NCBI GenBank assembly: GCA_963575745.1
Contig: CAUYUJ010000295.1
Location: 1-64,000, forward strand
DNA from: Prorocentrum cordatum
Lineage: Eukaryota
DNA length: 64,000 nucleotides
Direction of reading: 5' to 3'
Shown here: piece by piece, positions 2,990 to 61,656 of the stretch
How positions within the stretch are numbered: the first letter of the stretch is position 1
Layout: each line of letters starts with the position of its first letter
Notes under the pieces: model-generated
The model's database searches: none
What the model saw: the letters and a program-made list of their open reading frames with translations, nothing else
Told to the model about the DNA's origin: nothing
Position numbers and translations under genes: made by a program

Positions 2990-4135
2990 TTCGACCTCTT
3001 GGGCCTCTTGGGGGGCCGAGAGGGCGCCAAGACGGTTCAAGATGGGCTCTGTGCGGGCCAAAACGGCCCCGAGACGGTCCGAGATGGTTCCAAGAGGGCC
3101 CCAAAAACCCAAATGACAGCCCAAGGGGGCCCAAAGAGCGCCCACAACTGCGCCTCCAGAGGGCAAAATCATTGATGTTCCTATGGTTTGGGCGCTATTT
3201 TTGCGTTCTCGCCTTTGCGGCCCAAGCAGCTTCGCAAATCGTTCCAGCACAACCCAAAAAGCCCCCAAGAGGGCCCCGAGACGGCCCAACAAAACCCCAA
3301 GACGGCCCAAAGAGGCCCCCAAAACGGTCCAAGAGGCCCCTATGACGGCCCAAGGGGACCCCAAGACGGCTCCAAGGCGGCCCCGAGAGGCCCCCAAGAC
3401 GGCCTCCGAAGGGGCGAAACGGCGCAAAAGCGCCCCAATACGGCCAATGACGCCCCCAAGAGGCCCCAAGAGGCCCCCAAGAGGACCCCAAGGGGCCCCC
3501 ACGAGCCCCCAAGAGGCCTCCGAGATGTCTTCAAGAAACCTCCCAAAAGGCACCAAAGAAGCCCCCCGAAGGACACGCAGCGACTGGAGTGTAATGTCAT
3601 GTTGCCAACCTGGGCGAACTGCGGCGCAGCGGCAGCCAGGTGGAAGTTGGAAGCCCCCAAGAGGGCCCCAATACGACCCAACAGAGCCTCCAGACGGCCC
3701 AAATAGGCCCCCAAGACGGTCCAAGAGGCCCCTATGACGGCCCAAGAGGACCCCAAGACGGCCCCAAGGCGGCCGCGAGAGGCCCCCAAGACGGCCTCCG
3801 AAGGGGCGAAACGGAGCAAAAGCGCTCCAATACTGCCAAAAACGCCCCCAAGAGGCCCCAAGAGGCCCCCAAGAGGCCCCCAAGGGGCCCCAAAAGGCCT
3901 CCAAGATGTCTTCAAGAAGCCTCTCAAAAGGCTCCAAAGAAGCCCCCCAAAGGCCACACAGCGACTAGAGTGCAATCCCATTTTCCCAACCTGGGCGAAT
4001 TGCGGCGCAGCGCCAGCCACGTGGAAGTTGGTCACAGCGGCGCCCATGATTAGAGCTGGCGCTGGAAGGAAATATGAGGAGGGAGCGTGAAAAGGAGGAA
4101 GAGAGGCCCCAAAGAAGTCCCCAAGAGGCCCAAGG
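2990..4135. repeat. 'ccaagaggccc/ccaagacggccc' satellite-like repeat, family G, with an internal ~370-bp tandem duplication; related blocks ~16020-16230, ~19850-20260, ~53340-53900
   Basis: Recurrent 11-12-nt motif; ~3280-3650 is repeated at ~3650-4030. Confidence 0.8.
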
Positions 4136-11633: not shown

Positions 11634-11835
11634 TAAGGGAAGAAGCAACGGCATAAATATTAAAACAAATCGGAGGTCCGCGCGGATTCCTCGGATCCGC
11701 GCTGTGGCCCCCTGGCGGCGCCTTTGGCGCCGCCCCTGGCGCGCTCCGCGCGCCATGGAGGGGGGTCCAGCGCGGATCCGACAAACCCGTGCTAACCTCA
11801 GAATTTGTATGTTTATGCCATTTTTTGTTCCCCTA
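11634..11835. mobile_element. MITE family A (~200 bp, ~75-bp TIRs, 5-bp TSD). Copies: 4583-4691 (internally deleted), ~7740-7885 (partial), 11634-11835, 14455-14652, 20811-21013, 25155-25848 (expanded), ~26791-26995, 48764-48963, 49121-49325, 58886-59084, 59573-59771
   Basis: Ends T(C/A)GGGGAAC...GTTCCCC(G/T)A with 'tccgcgcgga' arms. Perfect TSDs: ACACC (20806/21014), GCATC (49116/49326), GATCC (58881/59085). Near-perfect: TCTGG/TCTTG, TAGAA/TCGAA. Confidence 0.9.
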
Positions 11836-13894: not shown

Positions 13895-14452
13895 TCAGTC
13901 GCTGCTGCTCGCATCGTCACTGCTGCTCCCACCTTCGCCGTCTTCGAAGCTTTCGTGAATCGTCTCGCTCTTATCTCTTGCCATCGTGGGATTAGCGTCG
14001 TTGAGCGCATTCCAGATCTCATTCTGAGTATTCACCCTGACCATGTCCATGGCAATCTCTTCCTGAGTCTCCTTTTCATTCGCATCAAACTTCTTCTTTG
14101 GCACACGTGAGACGCCCATGCGCTGCGACGTGCCCAACACTGCGAACACGGCAGCCAAGCTGAGATAGCCAATCATGAAGGCCGCCTGCGAGACGCCGAA
14201 TGCACCCTTAGTGCCTGTGAAATTCTGAAACGTAAGATCCGCACGAGGTTGGTGGACAATACCGAAGGTCGACAAGAACGCTCCCACAAGCGCCCAAATC
14301 GAACACTGCATGAAATTGGCATTGATGGCGAAGACGACCATTGCTGTCAGGATGATCGCAGATAGCAGGGAGCCATAGCCGAGAGCCATCAGCGAGGGAC
14401 TCCCTGCCCCTGGAGGCATCTGAGAGTTCGCCCAGTCTGCGATGGCTGGCAT
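13895..14452 (-). CDS. NCS2/AzgA-related nucleobase permease, last exon (exon 9)
   Basis: MPAIADWANS...GYGSLLSAIILTAMVVF...LSTFGIVH...GYLSLAAVF then an acidic tail and stop; several TM helices; taag| acceptor. Confidence 0.9.
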   Translation of the reverse strand: MPAIADWANSQMPPGAGSPSLMALGYGSLLSAIILTAMVVFAINANFMQCSIWALVGAFLSTFGIVHQPRADLTFQNFTGTKGAFGVSQAAFMIGYLSLAAVFAVLGTSQRMGVSRVPKKKFDANEKETQEEIAMDMVRVNTQNEIWNALNDANPTMARDKSETIHESFEDGEGGSSSDDASSSD

Positions 14453-14655
14453 CTTAGGGGAACGGAACATTACATAAACAGAGAACTCGGAGCTCCGCGC
14501 GGATTCCTTGGATCCGCGCCGTTCCCCCCTCCCTGGCGAGCGGAGCGCGCCCGGGGCGGCGCCGGAGGCGCCGCCAGGGGGGTCCAGCGCGGATCCGAGA
14601 AATCCGCGCGGACCTCCGAGTTTGTATGTTGATGTCATTGTTCGTTCCCCGACAT

Positions 14656-14844
14656 GAGTCCGATGATAGCTGCAGGGAGGTGCCGATTCTCGATGTTGCC
14701 GAACGTGTCCTGGTTGATCGCGAGCCCAATGAACAGCACGATCGGCGCGATGGCATACGGAGGGACGAGCGCGGCCACCATCGAGAACTGCCCGGTAACG
14801 CACATGAAGCAGAACAGCGCGCAGTTGAAGAAAGAATAACTCGC
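14656..14844 (-). CDS. Permease exon 8 (both boundaries ambiguous by a few nt)
   Basis: ASYSFFNCALFCFMCVTG...APIVLFIGLAINQDTF...HLPAAIIGL matches the family motifs GYS..NG, PIL..IGL.I..Q.F and HAPA..GL.P. Confidence 0.88.
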
Positions 14845-15615
14845 TGGCCCAATGGGCCAGAGGCGTGCTGAGATCTCTGGTTGTGTTGCTCCCATCGCGC
14901 TTAAGGACCATCTCCCAGAAATAATTTCGAGCACCCAGAAAAGTATCGAAACTGTGTCGGACGAGTATCGCCTCCCAGGGCCAGACACGTGGAAACCTTC
15001 AAGTTTTGGTACTTCCTTGGTGCGCGAAATCCCACCAGTCCTCTGGGCGTAGGTGGTCTAGGGAGCTTCCTCTTCCAATTCCCTTCTTCCCCGTCGGGGA
15101 GGGATTTATCACTGTTCCCTATTCATAAACACCCCCTCCCCCACCTGGCCTGCAGCCAACCCAGAATCATGCGGGCCCCCCCCCCCCAACATCCCTGCCA
15201 ACAACACAATACAAAATGCACATTGCGGGGCCCACCCTGCCAACACCCTCCACAATCCCTGTCCACAAAAATATACGAAGTGCACTTTGCAGCAAAATCT
15301 GGGCAGTGCGCTGGCGCCCTTGGAGCACGTGGTGTTGTTTTGCTGACAGGGATGGCGGGGCACCCCTAATGAAACCACTTTGTGCAGGACCACCCTCCGT
15401 GTCAAAAACAATGCAAAGTGCACGTTGCAACAACGTCGTGGGCGTTGTGCTGGCCAACCGCGATCACTTTGTATTGTTTTTGACCGGGACGGCGGTGGTG
15501 CTCGCATGATGATGTTTGCTATGCGCAAGCCCAGAACAATGCTGGCGCCCCCCACGTCAGCACCTGGACTATGCGGACGGGGGGGCATCACGTTTTTTTG
15601 TTGTTTTGTTTTTGT

Positions 15616-15651
<36 letters not shown>

Positions 15652-17525
15652 CTTACAAGGATGGCGCACCACCCGCATGTGGAGCCCGCGGCGAGCGTCG
15701 CGCCCCTGGCGTCCGCTTTGGTTCCCAATGGCTGTCCATCCAGTGGCGACCCCTGGCTATGCCGAGACTCGGATGCCACTTATATGGCGGGGGGGCGGGT
15801 GGGAGTGAGCTAAACGGCTTGCGTGCGGAGAGGGTGTCTTGACTCCTCCCCCCACCCCCCTCCCCTGGACCTGGACGGGGGGGCCGCGACGCGTTGGAGC
15901 GTCCAAAACGGTTCCGGCGAGAAAACGGATCTCATTTGTTCAAAAACAGTTGTGACCCCATTTTGGCATCTTGGGGGGGCAATGCTAATTAAAACTCTCC
16001 CTTTTTTTTGATCGATGTCCTCCAAGATGGCCCCAAGAGCGCTCCCAAGGCTCTCAGAAGCGCTTCAGCAGGGCCCCAAGAGGCGCATGGGAGGCCCCAG
16101 GAGGCCCCAAGAGGCGCCCGAGAGGCCTCCAAGAGGCTCCCAAGAGACCCCCAATGGGCACGAAGCATCCAAGACCCTCCAAGAGGCCTCCGGGTCAGCC
16201 AAGGGGCCCCCAGGACGCTCCAAGAGGCTCCTCTGCGTGCTGCCCACTTCCCTGATCGAGGCAACTCCTCCGGGCATCGTTTCTGGATGGGCTGGTGGAG
16301 TTACTTTTTGAATCGCGGCCCGCAAGGAGAAGTCCAGAGGGCGGTGTGACCGAGGCTGGGGCACAGCGACAGATAATTGGCGCGACATCGCGCAGAGTGC
16401 ACCTGCAGATAATTAAAAAGAGACGACCACGGTTCAACCCGCGGGTGGAAGCGAACCGAACGCGAGCCCAGCCGCTGAGCATGTGTCGGCAGAAGAGGGC
16501 AACCGCGGTGGGGAGAGCAGAAGCCCTGGTGCCACCACGCGGACCCCGAAAGCCGCTGAGCGTGTGCCAGCAGAAAAGGGCCAGGCGGGAACAGGTCGGA
16601 CCCGCAGGTGGAGTACCGACTGCCAGGAGGCGCGAGGAGAGATGGACAGCAAAACCTAGGGGGAAGCGTGGCAAATCCACTCACTTGACTCCCAGTGCGT
16701 GGGCCAGCGTGTACGCGGGCCACACACAAGCCACCGGGGGGGTTCGTGCCACAGAGCATACTTTTCACGGCCCGCACTCCCAGTCAATGCCTGGGAAAGG
16801 TTATTCAGCCGTCCACAGGGGAGGCCCGCGGTGGCCGCAGGTGCCATGACGGTGTGGTGCCTCCGCTCCCAGGAGGCACAAACTGTGGCCAGAGCCAACA
16901 TCTAGCTAGACGGCAGGGCGGTGCCTTTGGCCGTCGACCCTGTCCGCCGCGGGCCGGCAAGCGGCCAAACTATGAGTCCAAAAATGCCGACCGCACTGTC
17001 TACACGCCCATGTGTATGGGGGTCAGAAGTGGTAGTCGCTCCTGCGAGCGACGACGTGGAAGTCACTGCACGTTGCCGACTCCAAAGGATGGGGCACATG
17101 GAGGGGCCGCGTGGTGGAGTTACGCGAAGCGTCTAGAATTATTTCTGGTGGTCATAACTAAAATAGGTTGGAATCTCATACTCTCTGGTAGCGGATTTGC
17201 AGCTCTTCTAATTCGCGCGTTCCTCTTGGGCTGCCTTGTGGCATTATTGGGGGCCTCCTGGGCCGCGTCGGGCCGTCGCGCGCCCGAAAAGGCGGTGGCG
17301 CTCAAATGCTTCAGACACCCTGGGAACATAAGTACTTATTGGCTCTCTGGGTCTTCTTCGGGGTTCGTTTGAAGCGCCGTTTGGGTGTTCTAGAAGCCTC
17401 CTTCATGGACATCTTGCGGCGCTCTTGGACTGTCTCGGACCCGCGTGGCCTCGCTGCAGGCTTCGATGAAGGCTCATGGAACTCCTGGACGCCCAGACAA
17501 AAAAAAAAACATCCCTGACCCAGGG

Positions 17526-17704
17526 TCGGGGGCGTTCAAGAGGGTGGGGGCGCAAATCATGGCGGGCGGCACGTGCGCGGTCAAAGGGGGGGGGGGGCCG
17601 GGGTATTGAAATAAGAAAAAGTGCCGTGAAATGTGGGGCGACATCATGGCTCCCGCCATGAGATCCCCCACCCTAATCATCACCCCCCTCTTGGCCGCCC
17701 CCGA
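17526..17704. mobile_element. MITE family B (~180-200 bp); other copies 22096-22288 and 24878-25075
   Basis: TIR tcgggggcggtcaagagggg ... cccctcttgaccgcccccga; 5-bp flanks aatgc/aatac and tcttt/ttttt (no clear TSD at this copy). Confidence 0.85.
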
Positions 17705-18217
17705 CGCAAGGGTGGCCGGGCTGCGCCCAGGCTGCGCCCGGGACACTTTTCGCCCAGGGGACCCAGGCGGCCCAAGAGGCCCCTCTTTCTTCCCAAGGTG
17801 GCTCGAGACGTCTCAAGTTCTGTGCGTGTGAAACCATCACAGCTGCATTTTGCGGCGGTATTCGCCGTTCCTGCAGCCAAGGGTCTGACATGCCCCTCCA
17901 TGTTCGGCTGCCAGCACACGGCCCTGTCGTCTCTGTCCAAGGACTCCGCAAAGTCGTCTGGGAGAGGCTCTATCGCCCCCGAGCGTAGCATCTCCGTGCA
18001 TGCGTTGGGGGGGGGGCATCCCGAGGAGGTGACGAGTGCAGCGGAAGCGCTGCCGGAAGTCACGTTGGCACGCTGGGCAAACGCCGTCCGCCTTGACGTA
18101 CCTCTAGGTCGGGCATGTCCCCCCACAGGGGGATTTGGGACGAAAAATCAAAACAACAAAAATATGCTAACGGAGTTCCTCACATAAAGATGTTACGGGG
18201 TTCCATTGCTTCTTGAC

Positions 18218-19428
18218 TGCGCTCTGGTGGGGCCTCCCTGGAGGGGTGGGAGGGGCACGAAACCTGATGAATAATATGGTGTGCGAATACCCTGCCCGCT
18301 CTGGTGGGGCCTCCCTGGAGGGGTGGGAGGGGCACGAAACCTGATAAATAATATGGTGTACGGATACCCTGCCCGCTCTGGTGGGGCCTCCCTGGAGGGG
18401 TGGGAGGGGCACGACACCTGATAAATAACATGGTGTGCGAATACCCTGCCCGCTCTGGTGGGGCCTCCCTGGAGGGGCGGGAACGGCACGAAACCTAATA
18501 ATAAAATATGGCGTGCGAATACCCTGCCCGCTCTGGCGGGGCCTCCCTGGAGTGGCGGGAGGGGCACGAAACCTGATAAATAATATGGTGTGCGAATGCC
18601 CTGCCCGCTCTGGTGGGGCCTCCCTGGAGGGGTGGGAGGGGCATGAAACCTGATAAATCATATGGTGTGCGAATACCCTGCCCGCTCTGGCGGGGCCTCC
18701 CTGGAATGTTGGGAGGGGCGCGAAACCTGATAAATAACATGGTGTGCGGATACCCTGCCCGCTCTGGTGGGGCCTCCCTGGAGGGGTGGAGGGGCACGAA
18801 ACCTGATAAATAATATGGTGTGCGAATACCCTGCCCGCTCTGGTGGGGCCTCCCTGGAGGGGTGGGAGGGGCACGAAACCTGATAAATAACATGGTGTGC
18901 GAATACCCTGCTCGCTCAGGCGGGGCCTCCCTGGAGGGGTGGGAGGGGCACGAAACCTGATAAATAACATGGTGTGCGAATACCTTGCTTGCTCAGGCTG
19001 GGCCTCCCTGGAGGGGTGGGAGAGGCACGAAAACTTATAAATAACATGGTGTGCGAATACCCTGCTCGCTCAGGCGGGGCCTCCCTGGAGGGGTGGGAGG
19101 GGCACGATACCTGATAAATAACATGGTGTGCGAATACCCTGCCCGCTCTGGTGGAGCCTCCCTGGAGGGGCGGGAGGGGCACGAAACCTGATAAATAGCA
19201 TGGTGTGCGAATACCCTGCTCGCTCAGGCGGGGCCCCTCTGGAGGGGTGGGAGGGGCACGAAACCTGATAAATAACATGGTGTGCGAATACCCTGCTCGC
19301 TCAGGCGGGGCCTCCCTGGAGGGGTGGGAGGGGCACGAAACCTGATGTATAAATAATACCCTGCCCGCTCAGGCGGGGCCTCCCTGGAGGGGTGGGAGGG
19401 GCACGAAACCTGATAAATAACATGGTGT
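18218..19428. repeat. 77-bp minisatellite, about 15.7 copies, intronic
   Basis: Unit gaataccctgcccgctctggtggggcctccctggaggggtgggaggggcacgaaacctgataaataacatggtgtgc; unit starts at 18285, 18362, 18439. Confidence 0.95.
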
Positions 19429-20365
19429 GAGGAAAGGCATGGTATGGTATGGGATGATGGATGCATGGTATGGTATGGTAAGGTATGGTATGGAGTGGCA
19501 TGGTATTGGTATGGTACGATACAGTATGGGATGGTGGAGGAAGCGGGAGGAGGAGGAGGAGGAGGAGGAGGAGGAGGAGGAGAGGATGTTCTGGGAAAAC
19601 AAGAACCCCACTCAGGACGTGGGGAAAAAAACTACCCCGAACATGCTCAAACCTAGCCAAACAAATTATCAAAGCATCGTCCCCCTATTATTTGTTGGAC
19701 TATGTTGGGGTCTTCCTGCTGTAGAGAGACAGGCCGGACTTAAAACGTGCCGCCTCGCTTCGTCCCCGACGCCGTGAGCGGCGACGAGCCGGTGCTGCGC
19801 GGGGCCCCTCACGAGAGGCGCCGCGAGGCTCTCGAGAGAGCCGCCGCGAGGGGGGCCCCCGAGGCCGCCGGCAGGCCCCCGAGAGGCCCCGAGGGGCCGT
19901 TGGTACAGGGCACGAGGAGGAAGCGCGGTGACACAACACAATCCGAGAACTCCGTTGAGCACGCGCATGTGCTCGCAGCACATGCAAGCACGATTCACAG
20001 CACAAAAACGACGGGAACGTCCAGAAAACGAGAGGCCCCGAGCGGCCCCGAGCAGCGGATCCCCCGAGAGGCCCCCAGGATCTGTCTCTTCTCAGCGCAG
20101 CACCGTCTCGCAACCAGAAAGCCCCCGGAGATCCCCAGGAATGCGGCCAAGCCGCCCCCCAGGAGGCCTCCCAGAAGACCTCACGCCTCTCAAAGGGGCG
20201 TCTTGCCCACGACCCGCTTTGGCCCCCAGGAGTGCCCCAACAAGCCATCGAGAGGCCTCCTCCTCCTCCCCCTCCTCTTCCTGCTTATCGCTCGCCACTG
20301 GCACGCCACCAGAGCAGCAGTGATGCAGTATGGGCCGGCGGGATGAACGAAGCGATTGAATATAT

Positions 20366-20809
20366 TGTCCCTCCCGCGCGCTTGAGTGGCTTGTGGCTGC
20401 AGAAAACGCACGTGCCGAAAGGGGACCCAAACAAAGCGGACACCATCGTCGTGCATCCATCGACGACCAGCGTCTCCTTCACGCTGTACGGGTCACCCGC
20501 CTCGTGCGCATTGTACACAGACACCAATGTGTTGATAGCGCCGACAAAGGCTACAGGCAGAATGACCGAAATGTTTTCCAGTGCCACCTCTGGTATCTCA
20601 AAGAAGGCCTGCGTATCCAAAAGCCTAGGCGTATAGAAACGGAAGATCGAGGCGGCATTCTTGACCGACTCCCAAGTGCCGCCATCCTTGTCGACCTTGT
20701 CCTCTGGCCACCCTGAGCTGAACACCCATCCCATGAAGGCGCCAGCCAACATGATCATGACTGCGTTTGGAATCGGGTAGAACTTGACCCCGACGAAGTA
20801 ACCCAACAC
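20366..20809 (-). CDS. Permease exon 7
   Basis: VLGYFVGVKFYPIP...SVYNAHEAGDPYSVKETLVVDGCTTMVSALFGSPFGTCVFCSHKPLKRAGGT contains the hallmark A..AGD.Y...DG...LFGSPF; ctag|GTG acceptor. Confidence 0.93.
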
Positions 20810-21017
20810 CTAGAACACCAAATAACTAAGGAAAATTACAATTCTGGAGACCCGCGCGGATTTCTCGGACCGATGCTGGGCCCACATCTCCAGAGCGCGC
20901 CGGGGGTGGCGCCAAAGGCCCCGCGAGGGGTGCGGAGAGAAGGCCAGCGCTGGCGCAAGAAGTCCACGCGGGCCTCCAAATGATCTACGTTTGTACAGTG
21001 TCTCCGTTCCCGAACAC

Positions 21018-21140
21018 CGCAGTGGCCAGTGGCACAAAGCCCAAGTGCCCCGCGGCGAAGACCTTCATCAGCTGGGCGATGCCCAAGTGCGTCAGGCCGA
21101 CGCCAGCTAATGCGATCAGCAGCGCTGGTTTCGGGGCCAC
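21018..21140 (-). CDS. Permease exon 6
   Basis: 123 nt, VAPKPALLIALAGVGLTHLGIAQLMKVFAAGHLGFVPLATA (P..ALL..LAG motif); AG and GT boundaries. Confidence 0.92.
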
Positions 21141-21344
21141 CTTCATGTGTTGTTGTGCGCGTGGGTCTGTAAGAACATATACATCACTTCATAGGCAATT
21201 GTATGCAAGTGTGTATGCTTCTATCTATATTCTCAAATGCGCTTACGTATGTGTGTGGGCATATGCGTGCAGTTGCTAACCTGTGCAGTTATGATGTTTG
21301 CAGATCTTGATACCCAACCTCACAAGAACACATGTTGGAAGAAC

Positions 21345-21419
21345 CTTCATGATGGCCGGGCCAGCGAACCCGACCAAGGCAGCAATGAATCCAGCGGCAA
21401 GGTTCGCCACGGTGGTCAC
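21345..21419 (-). CDS. Permease exon 5
   Basis: 75 nt, VTTVANLAAGFIAALVGFAGPAIMK; gaag|GTG and AAG|gt boundaries. Confidence 0.9.
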
Positions 21420-23931
21420 CTTCGTCGCGGAAGCGCGCAAAAGAAAGACTCAGAATGAGACGCATCTCTGCTGGCACGACGGATCAGGGTCATGAAATGA
21501 GGGTAGCGGGTCCACGACAACTGGGCTTGCATCGGACTTCTTTGTCATTTTGAATGGCTTTCGGCGGACCCGAGTGAAACCCCTGATCTTCCTAGTCGCC
21601 TTCAAAATCAGTAGTTTGCTGAACCAAAGTCTCAACATTGTTTCCGACGCGACATTTCGTCATCAATAGATTGTAATGCGCCCTGAACTTGGACACGTTG
21701 GCCTGCACATTCCGAACTTCGCCCATCCCATTCCGCAATGCCGCCCCATTCTGGCCAGCTTGCCTGCCCCCCAATCGCGACCCCACAGTCACCCTGACTC
21801 CCTGGTGGCACTGCTCACTGTGACAGCACGTGCTAGACTCGTGTTGTCTGACTTCGCTAGCATAACCACTGATCAGATCCGCCACCGTACCGCAGGCTCG
21901 GAATGGACAAGTCCCTCTGAGTTCTCCATGTTGGATTAAGTAAAAAGCCTCTTGGGGCGCGCACGGGCGCTCCGTGTTTTCTCCCGCGTGGCCATTCTCC
22001 CCGAGGCCTCGGGACGGACGGCGTGCCTGTTCAGTTCCCACTTTTGGGGATTGTTACTGTTGGTCTTCCTTGTCTGATGCTCCGCTTGATTCTTTTCGGG
22101 GGCGGTCAAGAGGGGGGCGTCTCAGAGGGGGGGGTGCAAATCATGGCCGGCGGCACGTGCGCGGCCCAAGGAGGGGCCAGGGACGTAATGCAATGAGAAG
22201 AGCCGCCATGAAATCTGGGGACATATCATGGCCCACGCCATGATATCCACCCCCCCTTAGTCATCACCCCCCTCGTTGCCGCCCCCAATTTTTAATCGAA
22301 GAGCCCCTCCCGGGGCTCGCACCCTGTTTTTTAGAAAGGGAATTAATTGGCTGGCCACGTGGCCCCCGAACCACAACAACGTATTCGGCCTCGCGCACCC
22401 GCGCAGGGCCTCCTCACAGTGTGTGCAAGGATCGCGCTCTCGCGCGGGACTTCCTCGCCGCCTACTCACAAAGCGAAACCATGACACTCGGGCATGACGC
22501 TCTCGCCCTGGACTTCCTGACGATCTCCTTGGGATCGCGCTATCGCTCGAGACTGCCTAGCGGGTCATATAAGACTGACGCTTCAGCGACCCGCCCGCTC
22601 GACCTGGCCGCTTGGGCCCGCCCGCCCGCCAAGGTCCTCCCGCCCGACCCGCCCGTCTGGTTGTGCCACTGGTTTTCATGCTCCCATCCCCTGAGAATCT
22701 CGCTCATGTTCCGTTCTGCTCCGTCCCCCGTGTCCCGTCCTTCCATCCTCCCTCTCGTCCCCTGGGGCTGCACCAACTACACAGAGCAGGTAAGGTAGGT
22801 AACCCCCCCCCCAAAGGGACACGATCGAAGACGAAGAGGGCGGGTATCGAAGGTTTGGGATATACGTTCTGAATGGCATGCGAGCAAATAAAAAACAAGC
22901 ATTCTTAAATTGATTGCTGTTGCTGAATTCTCATGTCGAAGGTCAGTGAATGTGCTCCTCCTGGGGTTCGCACCCTGTTTTCTTAGAGGGGAAGGTCTTG
23001 TGCATCAGACTGCGCCCCCGCCACCGTTGTGCAACAGCAGCGGCTCCCGCCTGATACGCCCTGACAATTTAATCCAAGTCGCGCTCTCGCGCAGGACTTG
23101 CTGGCAGTGGACATGGATACACTCAGCCTACTCAGGGCCCGAACATATCTAGATGCACCGCCTGCAGGCCCCCCAGGCGCATGGGCAGGTCCCCGCGTTG
23201 GAATGGTGGCCTTCCCGAAATCAGCATTTGGTCGGGCGGGTCCCCCTACGGGCGGTTTTTTGGGTGAAAACTGCAAACTAGTCCAGCAATAATCCAAAAT
23301 ATAACAATATACTAGAAATATCGTCCCCATACTATTTTGACATGTTTTTGCATATACCTCCTGTAGAAAGACAGGCCCGACTTACGATCAGCAACCCCTG
23401 GGCCGCAACGAGCCATGTGCCATGCCGGGCTGACTGGGCGGGGTACAGACAGAGCTCCACGACGGCACGGGGGCGGGAGGGATGCCGCGGCCACGGCGAG
23501 GGCGCCGGGATCCGCTTGTGGCGGACGCTGCCGCGGCAGTCTTCGACACGACCGGGACCCTCCTCCAGGAACAGGCGCGGCTGGCTGGGGTCCTGCCCAC
23601 CCAGACCCCCGACGTCATGACTTTTCCATGACGCGACCCCCAGAGGTCTGGACCCATTCTCCGGGACCGGCTTCTCATCCCGAGTCGGTTTTTGGCGGTC
23701 CTGAGGCCCGTGAAGGGCCCCCAGAGAGCGAAAGTAGCGAAAAACCTTACGTCGTGACTTTTTCATGACTCGAGGGGGTCCTGCCGACCTGGGCGCTGGC
23801 CCCCGACACCGCGCGCAGCGTCGTCACCCTGGAGCGATGGAGGGTTCTGCCGATGGCGCCGGATCGCTCGACGTCGGCCGGCCGACCCAAGGACCACGCG
23901 CGGCGCTCCACCTGGAACGCCCGCGCTGGGG

Positions 23932-25148: not shown

Positions 25149-25848
25149 CGATGATCGAGGAAGAAACACACGCGTGCGAACAGAACAACTGCCGGAAATC
25201 CGCGCGCGGTTTTCTCCCGGTTCGGCGCTGGACCCCCCCTTTCTCTGGCGCGGTGCTAGAGCGCCAGGGGCGGCGCCCAAGTTGGACGCAAATAAATGGG
25301 GTGGGCGAGAAAAAGACGATTCCAGAAACCCTGAACCCAAAAACGTTTTCATCTCTTTTGGGCGCATTTGTTACTTCCGCCACCTTCCACCGCCCTTCCG
25401 CCGGCTTCCGCCAGCGGAGGCGGCCTCGTTTCACTTCGGCCACCCTTCCGCCGCCCTTCCGCGGCGGAAGAGATGATAACTCCTTCGATCCTCGCAGGCA
25501 AGGCGATTTTTGGAACGCCTCAGCTGGTGGAGGGGGGGAAGAAAGGGGCGACTCGGGCCCTCAAGGCCCTCTTCTGGGCCCCAGCAGGCCTCTCCAAGGG
25601 CCCATTGTAGGGCCGCGCTTCGGCAGCCCTCGCCGTCCCCTCATTTATCGCCCCACCCATTCGCGCGCCCTCCAACCCAGGAGCCGCCCAAGGGGGTCCT
25701 GCGCCGACCCAAGCACTCCGCGCGGACTCCTCCTCCTCCTCCTCCTCCTCCTCCTCCTCCTCCTCCTCCTCCTCCTCCTCCTCTCCCCCTCGTTTCCCCT
25801 CCCCCTCCTCCCCCTCCCTGTCTGCTTCTGCAGGTGTTTCCTCTTCGA

Positions 25849-48405: not shown

Positions 48406-50709
48406 TAACCCACACTCACCCCCGCCAGGAACCCCACTCCCGACCTGGTGATCCAGGAGGTCCTGGGGGTGGCGGCCTTTTTGGCCCCCAGGACCTGGCG
48501 GAAGTGCGGGTGGGTTGCGCTGCCCTGAGTCGGCCTCCCTCCTCGTTCTTTCCCTACCGATGCCGATCGCACCGAATGACGATTGAGAAGACCTTTTTTC
48601 GGGCGCGCGCCCCCAGAACCCCTCGAGGCCGGTCCCCTGCGCGCGCCGCGCGCCAAACCCCACAGGCGCGCCGCGGCGGCACTGCCGCCCCCGAAGGGCC
48701 ACTGGCACTGCGGGCGGCCCGAAGCAGGCAGCGGTGCGGTGGCCGGGAGCCTTCTGCGTAGAAGCAGGGACCAAACAAGGACAGAAACATAAAAACTCGC
48801 AGGTCCGCCCGGACATCTTGGATCGGCGCTGGAGCCCCCTGGCGGCGCCTCCGGTGCCGCCCCTTGCGCGCTCCGCGCGCCAAGGAGGGGGGATCCAGCG
48901 CCGATCCAAGAAATCCGCGCGGACCTTCGAGTTGTGATGTGTATGTCACGGTTTGTTCCTCGATCGAAGGGCCGACTGAGGACTCACGACGGCGCTATGG
49001 AGGCCACCCAAAAGGGAATGGAGAAGATGGGGTCGGATGATCGCGCCGCATCGCTGATGCCTCCGTGACGCTGGGACGGAGATAACCAAGCTCCAGCTCG
49101 TGCCGCATTGCCGACGCATCTAGAGAAGACAAATTCACAGAAACATTAACTTTCGGAGGTCTACGAGGTTCTCGTAGATCGGTGCTGGACCACACTTTAC
49201 AGCGCGCGGAGCGCACCAGGGGCGGCGCCGGAGGCGCCGCCAGGGTGGCCCAACGCCGATCCAAGACCCTCGCACGGACCTCCAAAAGGTTAGTTATGCT
49301 CATGTATGTCGATGTTCTTCTGCGAGCATCGGCGATTCAAAGGCGAAGGGAGGAGCGAATAGCCCAGGGGCGGGCCTTACACGCATCCGCCGGGGAGCCT
49401 CGCCGAAGACGTGAACCACCGGCGCCCCTGGATGCGCATGTGCTGTCCCCCCCGGGCTGTTCGCCCCCCATCGTCGCCTCCGAGCGATGCGGCGTGATGG
49501 GCCGACCCCATCTGCTCTGGCCTGCGACTGAAGGGCAACGGTACTCCCGCTCCGGGGGGGGGGGAACGCCGACCTGGAAGCAACGATGCCTCGCGAGTGG
49601 ATTGGCGATGGGCCCCCGAGAGCGAACGTCCGCACGCTCCTGGGCGGGGCGGGCCATCGGGCTTCCATCCGCGTCACGTGGGCACATGGGCGGCTGGGGG
49701 CCGATGCTCAGTATCCCCCTGAACCCGTCCCCCCTCAATAGAAGCTTCGCGCATCGGGTCCCAACAGATAGGGCATGACAGTGTCGGAGGATCGCGCCGC
49801 ATCGCCGCCGCATCGCCGCGATGCACCAACGACAGAACGGTGACGTCGGCGACGCATCGGCGCAGTCGGCGCGGAGAAAATCGGACCCCACGTTGAGCCG
49901 CATCGCCGATGCATCGGCCATACGGCGCGAGTATCCGATTCCACCTGTTCCGACCCCATCTTGGAGGCCCCACTTAGCCCGTACCTTCACCTCCCTCCCC
50001 CTCCCTATACGCCACTCAGGACGCTTCTAACCAAATTGGAAACCACGTTATTCCTAATATGTGTATATAGTTATATATATATATATGTATGTGAACAGAC
50101 ACAAATGCATATCTCTCTATATGTGTATAAAACTATTTATGTACATCTGTACACATACATATGTATATATATGTATGTTTACACATATCTTTAGTACATA
50201 CATGTACATATACATGTGTATATATATATATATATATATGTAGGCAACCCACCTCGGCATCCAATTCATTTTCCATGTAAGTACCCCTCCCCCTTATCAA
50301 TTGATCAACTACCGATGTGTTTCAAGTAATGCTGCCCTGCCAATTGCGAGTCATAGCCCGGGTCTCCAGCGGCCGTTCGGGACGAGCATGTCCAGAATGT
50401 CCGCGCTGACTCTACAACAATTTTGCCCTACTGCGGCGCCGCGAGCTCCGCGCTGCCCATGATCCCCCTGACGCTGCGCCAAGGTCCGCGCCTGCGAGAC
50501 CGGCAGCCAGACTTCGGGCGTGTCCCCTAAAGGCGGATTTCTGATAAACAACATTTGAAACATATTCAAACATATTCACAAAACTAATAGAAACATCGCC
50601 CCAAAACTATTTTTGTTACTATGTTTGAACGTTCCTCCTGTAGAGGGACAGGCCCGACGCCGCGGCGCTCCGCTCAGCCGCTGCGCCTCGGCGGCCGCGA
50701 CCCAGGCTC

Positions 50710-53296: not shown

Positions 53297-54581
53297 CACG
53301 GGCAAGCCCCACCACACCGCGCGAATTTCGACCACACCGGGCACCCAAGAGGCCCCCAAGACGGCCCCAAGAAGATCCAAAACAGTTCCAAGACGACCCA
53401 AGACGGCCTCAGATGGCTCCACAAAAACTCAAGAGATCCCCTAAACGCCCCAAAACGCCCCCAAGTAGCTCCAAGAGGCCCCCCAAGACGCCCCGAATAT
53501 CCACAAGAAAACGCCAACCACACCCAAGTAATTCCATTCCTTCGGGGAAACGTACATGTTTAGCCATACTTGCGTTTTTCCGGTCCAAAGCTCCAGAACG
53601 GTTCAAGAGGCCCCCCAAATGGCAGCAAAACTGATCCAGAGGCCCCCACGAAGCCCCAAGAGAGCCCCAACACAGCCACAGAGGGCCCAACGACGGCCCA
53701 AGATCACCCCAAGACGGCCCAAGAGAGCCCCAAGACGGCCCAAGCTAGCCCCAAGAGGCTCCCAAGAAAGGCCGAAGAAACCCCCAGCAGAGCCCCACGA
53801 CGGCCAGAACCCCCTGACACAGCTCACAAAGACCCAAACCTGCCCAAAAGGGCCCGAAGACGGTCCAGAAGGGCCTCTAAAAGAATCCAAACGCGCCCAA
53901 CAATAGGGGCTCGCCTCCCACTCTGTTCGTGTTCGCCTTTCTGTGCTCACGAGTGCTCCAGAAGCTGGGACCCCAAGCGGTCGGCGGATTCGGACCTATC
54001 AGTTGGATACCTACATGTGGGGTTTGATTATTCATATGGTGCTGTACCTGGATGTCCTATCAAACGGATGCCTTTGCATCTTTATCATGCATAAACGCAC
54101 GTATGAATAATGCTTGGCTCGAAGTTGTCTGAAACTTCACTTGGAACAGGATACCCAGTTCTTCAACAACAGCTTGCCATGCCTATGTGATCACCCTTGG
54201 ACATAGACTTTTCGCACCTAGCATCGCATGCATTGGACGGCGGCGTTCAGGACTGCGCCCAGGGAAGCGCTAAAGGATCAAGGATCGCGCTCTCGCCTTC
54301 CTCGGGTAATCTCTTGAATTCCCTCGGTACCCACTCTGGGAGTTTTTGGGGCCCTCTTCCATCGTTCGTAGGGCCCCCAGTGATATCCTTGAGGGCGATG
54401 TTGGGGCTATATCGCATGCCCTTGAACAAGAGAGTCGTAAGTTGGTGGGAGGGGCGTGTTCGCCCTTGACAAGTAAAAATGACCAGGAAACATGAAGGAC
54501 CAATGATACATAACATATTCGTAACACCGATGGTGCTTCCGGCAACACGGAACCTTCGTCCGCTTGGAGATTCTCCCTCTG

Positions 54582-56048: not shown

Positions 56049-59000
56049 CTCGCCGGCGAGGGCAGGCTCGGCGCGCGGCCGCCCCCGCGGGAGGGGCAGC
56101 GATACACACAGGACGATACGATTGTGCATGCCATGGCAGTGGACACTCGAACCCTTCTATCACTTAATGCAAGACGTGTTTGAAATGTTAGAAGCATGTT
56201 ATAAAACATGTTGTAAGCATGCTTACAACATGTCTAACACTTGTTTCGGCATCTGGATTGTTTGTTGGACCATGCCTCCTCTCAATTGATAGATTGGCGA
56301 TGCAGTAGGGACTCGGACACGAGAGACCTTCCACAAGAAGCCCAACCCGGAGGCTCCAAGACGTCCACTGACTTCGGGTGTGGGAATGTCGCCCTTCTCA
56401 TCGCAAAACCATCGGAATCCAAGAAACCCGGGGCACCCTGGAGGCGAGCAGGGTGGTTCTTGGCATGGGTCTCCACTGCAGAACCCCGATGGCGAATCCG
56501 GAGCAAGCGGACCCCATATCAGCGATGGACTGGGCGACTGGGGGTCGATGCCTCCCCCATGCATGTTTTCGGGCCATAACTCGGCTCTCCGGCGGCGATC
56601 CAGGCACCCGCGGAACGCCCTCGGCGAGGCGCAGCCGCTGGAAGGCACCCACAGGCTGGAACACCGCCGAGGACCGGCGAGATCGCCCTAAGACCACGCG
56701 CCTCGAAACCTCAAGACTCGAAGCTGCCCTCCCTGCGCCAACCTCCCCCCCCCGACGCTGCCCCTGATCAGCGGCGGCCCTCGCGGTGCCGGGACCCTTC
56801 TCGGCGGCGCTCGAGCGCGGGCCGATCTCCACGGTCCCACGCCCGTTCGGCAAGCCTGCCTCGGCCCCGTCGTGGCCGAGGGGTGGGGTGGGCTGGGGGC
56901 TCTTTTTTGGGTGATAGCTCCCAGCGGCGATGCGCGCCTGGAAGCCTGGATCCTCCCCCCTTCCTGACCCAACTCCGCATCAAGTCTGCCACGTGGAGCC
57001 CTCCTGAGGGGGAGGAGGGGGAGGAGGAGGAGGAGGAGGAGGAGGAGGAGGAGGAGGAGGAGGATAAGGAGGAGGAGGAGGAGGAGGAGGAGGAGGAGGA
57101 GGAGGAGGATAAGGAGGAGGAGGAGGAGGAGGAGGAGGAGGAGGAGGAGGAGGAGGGGTCTCCAGAACAAGAATCCACAACATTGGGCCGTTCTTTTTTC
57201 GAGCGGCCTCCTGCCGTGGCGACGAGGACCTCTGAGGCGGCGACGTCCAGGGTCCTCGGCACTCGATCCGCCTCCTCCCCGTCCCTCGGCGCGGGGCCTC
57301 GGTGCGAGAAAACTGGCTCGGGGTGCTCCTCCCCGTCCTCCTCCGCCTCCGCCTCCTCCGCCTCCGCCTCCTCCTCCTCCTCCTTCCTCTTCCTCCCCCT
57401 CCCTCGGCGCGGGCGGAAAGCATTATGACGATGCCCAGCATCGATCGAATGCTGTGCAACACCGACTGCGGCCGGTGTTGGACAGGCGGCGTTTGTCCTA
57501 ACTCGACGTCGTCTGCGGCGACACCGACAACGAGCCCCGTTGAAAACGGGCAGGAATATGCTGCTGATCGTCCACACTATTTCCGTCCCCATTTTAGACC
57601 GCCCCGAATGGCCTAGGCTGTCCACGGCGACACCAAAAGCGAAACACTGACCAACCCGATAGCGAAGCCGAAACCTGCCGACACCGACAGGCCGAAAGCA
57701 GCCTCAGATGGGCGCAACGACGCAGCCACGGCACGGCAACCGACCGAACCGTACCGACCGAACTAGGACGATAGTGATGTCATGATGCGAGTGGCCCATT
57801 CTAATTTCCAGGAGTTCGGGAGAATCCAGCGGCCATCGGTTATGAAGAGCCTGCGGAATAAGTAAGAAGGAAGTCCAGGCTATCCTGGAAACATCGGGAC
57901 GCAGCAACATCATGGCTTCCATGACTTCTCCTGCTCCTCCGACAAACGCAATTGACAGGTCGAACGCAGCCCAGCAGGGCACCGCGAAGCAGCGACGACA
58001 CACCCGCCGACCGAACCGAACTGACCGATCGTAAAACTTTGGTCCCCTCACGTCGCGCATCGCGTCCAGCAGTGCGCGAGGAGAAGGAGGAGGAGAAGGA
58101 GGAGGAGGAGGAGGAAGGAGGAGGAGGAAGGAGGTGGAGGAGGAGGAGGAGGAGGAGGAGGAGGAGGAGGAGGAAGAGGAGGAAGGATGAGGAGGAGGAG
58201 GAGGAGGAGGAGGAGGAGGAGGACGAGGAGGAGGAGGAGGAGGAGGAGGAGGAGGAGGAGAGGAGGAAGGATGAGGAGGAGGAGGAGGAGGAGGAGGACG
58301 AGGAGGAGGAGGAGGAGGAGGAGGAGGAGGAGGAGGAGGAGGAGGAGGGAGGAGGGGGAGGTTGGCCTCGCGCCCTCGCGCCAATCCCCCTTGGAGCAAG
58401 AGGGCGGGTCCTCCGTCCCAGACCGTGACGCTCGCGAAGCGCGATTCTACTCAAGGTCGTGCGTGTCCCCCCACAGGCGGCTCCTGGAAGAAAACCAAAC
58501 ATAGTCAAAGCACATGCTCGAACATAGTCGAACGACAGTCGAAACCTCGTCCACGACGATGTTTTTTGACCATGTTTGAATATTCCCGACGGAGGGACGG
58601 GCCCGACACGAGATGATGCCTCTTCGCGCCCCCGTGGGCGGCCTCTGCAGCAGCCGTGCTCCCACAAGTGGACAAGCGCGCTCCAATACCTTTCGGTCGG
58701 GCCTGTCCCCCCTACAGGTGGATCTTGGAGGAAACAACCATGAAACATACTCCCAAATAGTCAACAAATAAGAAAAAAAACATCCCCAGACGATTGTTTG
58801 ACTACATTTGAATATTCCTCCTGCAGAGGGACACGCCCGACTCAACACTACCTGCAAAATGACTATTCGCAAATGGCCTCGATCCTAGAGGAAGAACAAG
58901 AATGCCATAGACATAAACTTTTCGCGATCCGCGCGGATTTCTCGGATCTGCACTGGACCCTCCTCCCTGGCGCGCGGAGCGCGCCAGTGGCGGCGCCAGC

Positions 59001-61656
59001 GCCGCCGGGGGGGCCCAGCGCGGATCCTGGAAATCCGCGCGGAGCGCGAACCGTTTCATGTTCATGGCGTTTTTTCTTCTTCGAGATCCGCCGCGGGGGG
59101 TTTACGACACATTACACAGAGGGCGTGTTTTGTTGCTGTTCGGACGTTTGCGAGTAGGCACTTTGGGAGCAGCGGAACGCGCTCGGTGAACAGCGAGTGG
59201 TGGGCTTGCTCTCCACCGCCACCACCATCAGAGGGGGAGGGGGTCCTCCTCCTCCTCCTCCTCCTCCTCCTCCTCCTCCTGCTCCTGCTCCTCCTCCTCC
59301 TCCTCCTCCTCAACTTACGGTTGTGGTGGTGGGAAACAAACCCATCAGAGAGAGCCGCACCGAGAGCGGGTAGGCGCTCCCAGCCACGCCTGGAGCCTCG
59401 GCCTCGAACAGGCTCCCGCCTGCAGGGCCCCAGGCCCGACCACCGGAGTCCCACGCCGTGAGCCCGCAGCGGTCTTTCGCTCGGCACGCTTTGACTGTAA
59501 ACATAAACAAAGACATACAAACTCGGCAACTGGAGACATGAACATAAGCACAAACATAAGCAGAAACGGTCATCGGGGAACGAAAAAGGACATAAACGTA
59601 GAAACTTGGAGGTCCGCGCGGACTTCTCGGATCGGCGCTGAGGCCTCCTGGCGACGCCTCCGGCGCCGCCCCTGGCGCGCTCCGCGCGCCAGGGAGGGGG
59701 GTCCAGCGCCGATCCGAAGAATCCGCGCGGACCTCCGAGTTCTTATGTTTATGTCATTCCTCGTTCCCCAATGACCGCAGGCAGCCGACTGCGACGCAAT
59801 CCCCGTCGCCTAGTGTTCGGGTTATGCAGTCGGCCCGTACCAGAAGGATGCGCGATACGGATGCAGGGGCCTTGGACGCCCATTTCGAAGCTTTTCGCGC
59901 GGGGCGCGGCCAACGAAAGTGGCCAAGGATGGGCCGAGGAGGTAAAAATGCAATGGCACCCTTGGGAAAATCGCTATCCTTACTGTGCGGGTCGACTGTA
60001 ACTCGGGTCCCCGGCGGCCGTTCGGGATGGTTCGGACAAGCCCGGAACGCCCTCGGCGAGGCGCGGCTGCCGGAAAGCATCGCGAGGTTGGGAAGCCGCC
60101 GAGAACCTGAAAACGTGCAACCGAATCGAATCTTCCGAACGCAGCCGACTGCGACGCAGCCGAACCGACTGAATCGCTCACGCCCCTAACCCGCAGCGGG
60201 CCCCGCAAACGGTAAGGTCGCGTTTATGCCATGTGCGAAAACGTTGAGAAACACTGCTCATCAAAACGGGGCAAAACAATTGCTTCAGAATTGGAGCCCG
60301 AACCAGAACTAAAAACAAAAACGGTTGTGGAACCGGGGAATAGAAACGGCTCCGGAACCAACAACAAATCAGCAAAACGGAACCTGCAAAAATCTGCTTC
60401 CTAAAACATCTATCCCTGGACCTCTCCTGGGATGCGTTCTGTCTAGAATTACGACTGACATGTCCTCCTACGGGCGGATTTTGGAGGAACAAGAAAAAAC
60501 TGTCAACATAAATATTCAAAAATAGTAATATAAAAAATTCCCCAAAATCGTGCCCAGACTATTTTTTTACTATTTGTGCATATTCCTCCTGTAGAGGGAC
60601 ACGCCCGACTTACGCCTAGAATTTCGAGGCGGATCCAGGCGTGGCCACGAGAGCGCTCCAGGACGATCAAGAGCATCTAGAGAGCGAACCTCGAACCTCG
60701 AACCCCTGAACCCCTGAACCCGCCCTCGTCCGACGAAAACGCACGACCGAACCAAACCTTCCGAACGCGGCCGACGGCCACGCAACCGAGCCGACCGAAG
60801 CGCGCACGCGCACGACCCACCATCCGGAGGCGAGCGAGGGGGGGAAGTGACACGGAGAAGGCCTTCCCAGAAGGCGGCGGGACTTCTCAGAAGCCCTCGC
60901 GCCTTCCGAGAAGGTCTTCTGCGTCTTCGGGAAAGGCTGAGAAAACTTCTCAGAAGGCCGGGGGATTTCCGAGCCTTCCGAGAAGGCCTGCCCCTTCTCA
61001 CTTCCCCCCCGAGCTCGCCACCCCAGACCCCCGACGTCATGACCTTTCCATGATGCGACCCCCAGAGATCCGGACCCATTCCCCGGGACCGGTTTTTCCT
61101 CCTGAGTCTTTCTCTGACGGTCGCGAGGCCCGGTGAGGGCCCGCCTAGGCCGAAGATTGCGAAAAACCTCTCGCGCCGCGATTGTTTTCACAGCCCGAGG
61201 GGGTCTGGGACCGCTCCTCCTGCTCCTCCTCCTGCTCCTGCTCCTCCTCCTCCTCCTCCTCCTCCTCCTCCTGCTCCTCTTCCTCCTGCTCCTGCTCCTC
61301 CTCCTCCTCCTCCTCCTCCTCCTCCTCCTCCTCCTCTCCTCCTCCTGCTCCTCCTCCTGCTCCTCCTGCTCCTCCTCTCCTCCTCCTCCTCCTCCTCCTC
61401 CTCCTCCTGCTCCTCCTCCTCCTCCTGCTCCTGCTCCTGCTCCTCCTCCTCCTCCTCCCCTCTCCTCCTGCTCCTCGTCCTCCTCCTCCTCCTGCTCCTG
61501 CACCTGCTCCTGCTCCCTCCTCTCCTCCTCCTCCGCTCCTCTCCTGCTCCTGCTCCTCTCCTGCTCCTCCTCCTCCTCCTCCTCCTCCTCCTCCTCCTCC
61601 TCCTCCTCCTCCTCCTCCTCCCCCTCCTCCTCCTCGTGGCGCATCGGCCGGCGGTC

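Follow-up and report, generated by a model that had tools for sequence, protein, structure and literature searches.

Can the insertion of a single mobile element supply both splice sites of a new intron? The question is raised by a 208-nucleotide intron located on the minus strand of a 64,000-nucleotide stretch of DNA, here called the window. The minus strand at the insertion reads ...ACTGC GGTGT / TCGGGAACGG...GGTGTTCTA / GGTGT TGGG, with slashes marking the ends of the inserted element. The intron is composed of four nucleotides from the upstream copy of the target-site duplication, the element, and one nucleotide from the downstream copy. The lengths of the element (203) and the duplication (5) add up to the complete intron, which contains no further sequence. 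It is very probable that a transposon inserted at GGTGT made this intron and that the insertion created its splice sites. A sequence-only reading of the locus had described a perfect GGTGT duplication and a 208-nucleotide GT-AG intron, in which the AG consists of the last A of the element and the first G of the target and the GT consists of target positions 2 and 3. The coordinates and the arrangement are exactly as it claimed, and the derivation of both splice sites holds for this intron. The direct repeat around the element is actually six nucleotides long, GGTGTT, because the first base of the element is T. A five-nucleotide direct repeat flanks a 203-nucleotide stretch at 254 of 63,787 window positions (0.4%).

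Table 1 Positions of the introns, exons and copies of the element family in the window.
Feature	Position	Strand	Details	Evidence
GT-AG intron, 208 nt	20810..21017	minus	phase 0	genomic letters, RNA contigs
Target-site duplication GGTGT, upstream copy	21018..21014	minus	first G ends the upstream exon; the GT after it forms the 5' splice site	
Target-site duplication GGTGT, downstream copy	20810..20806	minus	first G is that of the 3' AG; the downstream exon begins with GTGT	
Non-autonomous element, 203 nt	21013..20811	minus	T to A; inner long palindrome; diverged family member	BLAST, alignments
Upstream exon of AzgA/AGZA-like permease gene	21018..21140	minus	41 codons, ...VPLATA	RNA contigs, tblastn (P0001, P0005, P0007), alignment
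Downstream exon	20361..20809	minus	VLGYF...GGTIY; 3' end ambiguous by 2 nt (20359-20361)	RNA contigs
Neighbouring GT-AG intron, 204 nt	21141..21344	minus	upstream of the 208-nt intron	RNA contigs
5.5-kb intron	14838-20360	minus		cDNA loose ends, 4 runs
Second family copy in the gene, 198 nt	14455..14652	minus	T...A; flanks TCATG and AGATG	BLAST, alignment, homologs
Family-related copy, 691 nt	25158..25848	minus	typical ends; flanks ACATC and TCATC; between two 5' exons	alignment
Family copy	58886..59084	minus	perfect duplication GGATC	alignment, flanks
Family copy	49121..49325	minus	perfect duplication GATGC	alignment, flanks
Family copy	11634..11835	+	flanks TCTGG and TCTTG	alignment, flanks
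Family copy	48764..48963	+	flanks TAGAA and TCGAA; first base G rather than T	alignment, flanks
Family copy	59573..59771	+	flanks GGTCA and TGACC	alignment, flanks

The intron interrupts a permease gene, for which protein searches were run exon by exon. The downstream exon is 99% identical to P0001, a 574-amino acid protein of Prorocentrum cordatum, and judging from this match P. cordatum is the host organism. The G+C content of the window, about 0.6, agrees with the 59.7% reported for the P. cordatum genome (Dougan et al. 2023, PMC10666404). Relatives among metatranscriptome proteins carry the label AGZA-family xanthine/uracil permease-like, and the match of the downstream exon to the Pfam family PF00860 is weak (E 0.0012, under the curated cut-off). 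The protein search returned the genome model P0001 together with paralogs and relatives, and no transcript-derived product of the permease gene. The junction is in phase 0, GCG/GTG, and the protein reads ...PLATA/VLGYF... across it. All eight relatives that cover the region, out of nine aligned, run through this position without a gap, and P0001, P0002 and P0003 are identical there; the comparison was made on protein models.

The removal of the intron from RNA is directly visible in public data. A search for runs listed 20, of which 18 contain about half of the words of the interval 20300-21200, as expected for spliced RNA. RNA from four runs (X1, X14, X4 and X8), one per study and each consisting of assembled contigs, was mapped to positions 19700-22300. 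In all four, contigs join position 20804 to position 21013 and skip 208 nucleotides, with six ambiguous letters. When the skipped piece is shifted five positions to the right, its ends are CT..AC on the plus strand, which corresponds to GT..AG on the minus strand. The 208 nucleotides that the genomic sequence marks as the intron are missing from the cDNA contigs, which are in frame across the junction. No coverage was found among the contigs of the four runs in the bins 20831-21004 inside the intron; because the runs are assembled contigs, rare unspliced or alternative forms may be hidden. At position 20426 in the downstream exon, T was read in run X14 and C in the remaining three runs, as in the window (plus strand); strain variation or RNA editing could account for this.

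The six ambiguous letters leave seven equivalent cuts with the ends GG-TA, GT-AG, TG-GG, GT-GT, TT-TG, TC-GT and CG-TT, among which GT-AG is the sole usable splice pair. The RNA, the relatives and this enumeration of cuts together show that excision of the element and one copy of the duplication restores the coding sequence.

The element belongs to a family of palindromic sequences about 200 nucleotides long with the inverted ends TCGGGGAACG...CGTTCCCCTA, as seen in alignments. BLAST searches of the window with the insert and four better-conserved copies as queries identified 14 intervals, ten of which have been counted as copies or partial copies, those near 7.7 and 26.8 kb included; the other four, fragments of 30-53 nucleotides, were left out. 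The family is therefore dispersed, with about ten copies or partial copies within 64 kb. A metagenome scan with the family core found two further loci, one (L002) with both ends and the duplication GGGTA, and the other (L001) matching the right half of the core only. A Pfam search of 142 of the 321 window open reading frames of at least 110 amino acids (those from the first 29 kb) returned no family at an E-value of 1e-5.

The family has a characteristic insertion footprint. In the seven copies with both ends, the five-nucleotide flanks are identical in three (GGTGT, GGATC and GATGC), agree at four of five positions in two and at three of five in one, and are inverted in one. The inverted flanks, at the copy at 59573-59771, are reverse complements of each other and thereby lengthen the inverted repeat; they do not constitute a direct duplication. 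A terminal A on both strands, as claimed for the element, is borne out by the T...A termini of six of the seven copies and by the 691-nucleotide copy, and fails for one copy, which starts with G. The terminal 30 nucleotides of the seven copies are 57-77% pyrimidine on either strand. After removal of the element and the duplication, the reading frames across the copies are mostly open, as would be the case by chance at 60% G+C.

Within this family, the 203-nucleotide element appears to be a diverged member, as judged by its length, ends, duplication length and inner palindrome. The inner inverted repeat matches at 18 of 21 positions, and the outermost one is degraded. The element is 68% identical to other window copies over 156 nucleotides (BLAST, E 2e-11); this identity and the worn outermost repeat count against the explanation proposed below. 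The predicted RNA fold of the element has an energy of -94.4 kcal/mol, compared with -73.7 +/- 4.6 for shuffled sequences (z -4.55), and none of 200 shuffles folded as well.

These observations suggest how the intron may have formed. A DNA transposon that is non-autonomous, carries inverted ends and duplicates five nucleotides of its target would have inserted into the permease coding sequence at GGTGT. With T as the first and A as the last base of the family, the result would have been ...G/GTGT-(T...A)-G/GTGT.... The spliceosome would then take the GT of the upstream duplication copy as the donor, and the last A of the element together with the G that starts the downstream copy as the acceptor. 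Removal of the element and five nucleotides would leave an mRNA identical to that of the uninterrupted gene. The hairpin and the pyrimidine-rich 3' end of the element may help the removal. The anatomy of the insertion, the family and the exact removal of 208 nucleotides from RNA have been observed directly. The intron probably arose through the insertion and was not already there when the element arrived, because there is no intron sequence outside the element and the duplication, and the removal is probably spliceosomal, because GT-AG is unique among the equivalent cuts.

According to our own reasoning, the targets at which an insertion of the family is spliceable are NNAGG, NAGG(T/C/A), AGG(T/C/A)N and GG(T/C/A)NN, the last of which is the only one that does not need an A in the target. 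The sequence-only reading had generalized that any insertion into GG(T/C/A)NN yields a precise intron in either orientation. By this rule, the copy with the duplication GGATC would form a GA-AG intron if the minus strand were transcribed. Splicing in either orientation is plausible given the A at the ends of both strands and the pyrimidine-rich terminal 30 nucleotides on both strands. Mapping of relatives onto the window identified three family copies that interrupt the coding sequence of the permease gene. All three share one orientation; one has a target of the proposed type (GGTGT), and the other two have (A/T)CATC and (TC/AG)ATG. The generalization is therefore only partly supported.

The two sister copies may be removed in another way than the 208-nucleotide intron. 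Homologs run ...AAIIGLM/PAIADW... across the 198-nucleotide copy, and its in-frame removal that keeps GLM/PAIADW is possible only with AT-AG, TG-GA, GT-AT or TC-TG ends. A canonical alternative would extend from GA at 14660 to AG at 14446 and delete GLMP. A metagenome scan for a spliced message, made with a 24-nucleotide exon word from beside this copy, found no locus. The 691-nucleotide copy is located between exons ending ...PAVGDI and beginning IDCGLNLFF... and holds a GGA-type simple repeat. No AG is present between its 3' end and the exon with the conserved IDCG...; a canonical alternative appears to exist, with a GT at about 25857 and an AG near 25176, and would replace about three residues by about 12. 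Long GGA/CCT trinucleotide runs are present at many places in the window.

The public gene model P0001 lacks the two 5' exons that flank the 691-nucleotide copy, and 61 of its residues are in another frame compared with the relatives. These residues appear to fit a choice of GC-AG and GT-AG introns adding seven and two nucleotides: the model would use a GT-AG pair (two nucleotides more) at the 198-nucleotide copy, offset by seven additional nucleotides at the previous intron.

The cDNA supports four introns of the gene, all of which have boundary repeats (6, 9, 5 and 2 nucleotides). The neighbouring 204-nucleotide intron is skipped in all four runs with nine ambiguous letters, which gives ten equivalent cuts. 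The nine-nucleotide repeat CATGAAGGT is present at both of its borders, with AG/GT inside the repeat, and its own inverted ends match at about 18 of 23 positions. By these features it is also transposon-like; no further copies of it were found in the window. A 3.1-kb intron, supported by RNA contigs, is of the GC-AG type and has a five-nucleotide repeat. The 5.5-kb intron is delimited by loose ends at 20359, which continue at 14837 in all four runs. Its sole possible ends are TT-AG, TC-GT or CA-TT, and a G(T/C/A) donor is impossible. The reading joined over it, ...TIYYSFFNC..., matches P0002 and P0003, and the odd ends may reflect an allele or assembly difference. In terminal inverted repeats, neither of the two large introns exceeds shuffled controls. 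The 5.5-kb intron contains a tandem array of at least 14 copies of a 77-nucleotide unit at 18143-19432.

The unusual ends of the 5.5-kb intron, the restricted ends of the 198-nucleotide copy and the missing AG beside the 691-nucleotide copy provide the arguments for a different mode of removal, in which the copies are cut at their duplication boundaries by a non-canonical route guided by the repeats or the hairpin, and the GT-AG of the 208-nucleotide intron is incidental. The RNA of this intron is predicted to fold into a long hairpin in which the two ends come close to each other, and introner elements of Amoebophrya provide a precedent (Farhat et al. 2021, PMC7789003). Since the two sister copies have no in-frame removal with G(T/C/A)...AG ends, GT-AG may not decide the removal. 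However, three of the four cDNA-supported introns have G(T/C)...AG at exactly one of their 6-10 possible cuts, which is unlikely to occur by chance. Furthermore, the cases of both sister copies are deduced from homology, and both also have the canonical, protein-changing alternatives described above. Non-canonical removal of the 208-nucleotide intron is therefore improbable. That the element landed in a pre-existing intron, or that the repeat is an ordinary identically repeated boundary and not a transposon footprint, deserves very little credence even though repeats of 2-9 nucleotides (2-11 in the discussion of the source) are a general feature of the introns of dinoflagellates (Mendez et al. 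2015, PMC5032977) and are present in all four cDNA-supported introns of the gene, because the element and the duplication leave nothing over in the intron and the length of the repeat equals that of the duplications of the family elsewhere in the window.

The preferred explanation, an intron made by a transposon insertion, places the locus among the introners. The element is a member of a dispersed family, the element and the duplication make up the whole intron, the coding sequence is uninterrupted after their removal, and both a duplication and inverted repeats are present. The mechanism itself is known from dinoflagellate introner elements. It has been reported that the introner-like elements of Polarella glacialis and Symbiodiniaceae are non-autonomous, have inverted ends, and generate introns by insertion, with duplications of 3, 4, 5 and 8 nucleotides (Roy et al., 10.1101/2020.10.14.339549). 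Some of their classes draw both splice sites from an AGG(T/C/A) duplication. In others, the 5' or the 3' site spans the boundary between the element and the duplication, and some classes are bidirectional. The same study attributes the conserved G(T/C/A) that follows the 3' splice site to this introner-like origin. The connection of such insertions to this motif and to the mixture of donors, which the sequence-only reading had inferred, is thus already published by Roy et al.

The intron resembles classes 9, 12, 13 and 14 of Roy et al. in that its splice sites come from the duplication or span its boundary, and class 12 in the five-nucleotide length of the duplication. By contrast, the element comes from another species and belongs to another sequence family. 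The particular frame of the P. cordatum intron, with the A of the AG provided by the last base of the element and a GG(T)NN duplication, is not spelled out in the available text of Roy et al. In Polarella class 14, the AG is wholly within the AGG(T/C/A) duplication. The 208-nucleotide intron differs in taking its A from the element, whereas the neighbouring 204-nucleotide intron fits this class, with AG/GT within its nine-nucleotide repeat. The same diversity in the origin of introner splice sites has been stated more broadly by Gozashti et al. (2022); Prorocentrum is not named in the main text of that study or of its 2025 follow-up.

Introner elements have been reported to be enriched in P. 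cordatum, where they occupy 2.4% of introns (Dougan et al. 2023, PMC10666404). They were defined in that study as introns with inverted repeats (8-20 nucleotides) together with direct repeats 3-5 nucleotides long near both ends. The organism is the same as here; however, those elements are defined by a pattern, and the available text gives no family, duplication frame or origin of splice sites for them. Mendez et al. (2015, PMC5032977) described dinoflagellate introns with a repeat at both ends that is kept once in the mRNA, spliced between two Gs. The 5' site in their description is AGG, whereas the exon upstream of the 208-nucleotide intron ends CG/G, since it is the element that supplies the A, which is present only at the 3' end. 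The non-canonical introners of the parasite Amoebophrya have inverted repeats, direct repeats of 3-5 nucleotides over the exon/intron borders, and an RNA hairpin (Farhat et al. 2021, PMC7789003). The 208-nucleotide intron shares the repeats at the borders and the hairpin with them, but has a canonical and unique GT-AG. The 198- and 691-nucleotide copies, which are known from homology only, are the ones that might resemble the Amoebophrya case.

The locus provides a clean, RNA-verified case of a single transposon insertion giving rise to a precise intron in the bloom-forming P. cordatum, from which introner families have had no prior description in such detail. It adds one splice-site frame to the catalogue, in which the acceptor is the A of the element plus the G of the target and the donor is target positions 2-3. 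The existing catalogue already explains the boundary repeat of dinoflagellate introns and the G(T/C/A) after the AG. The more useful lead is that GT/GC/GA-AG does not fit three features of the same gene, the two sister copies and a long intron, as a result of which the public model P0001 appears distorted. We consider it rather unlikely, yet worth stating, that P. cordatum cuts family copies out of its mRNA precisely at the edges of their duplications also where G(T/C/A)...AG is lacking, with AT-AG or without any AG, and the 5.5-kb TT-AG intron likewise. If this were true, the non-canonical removal of introners seen in Amoebophrya would extend beyond parasites to a free-living core dinoflagellate. 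Annotation limited to GT/GC/GA-AG introns would then mis-model such genes, as the 61 out-of-frame residues of P0001 suggest. The window also contains dispersed arrays of CCCAAGAGGCC-like units with a period of about 10-11 nucleotides, which are located at 3100-3950, 16050-16160 and 53380-53800.
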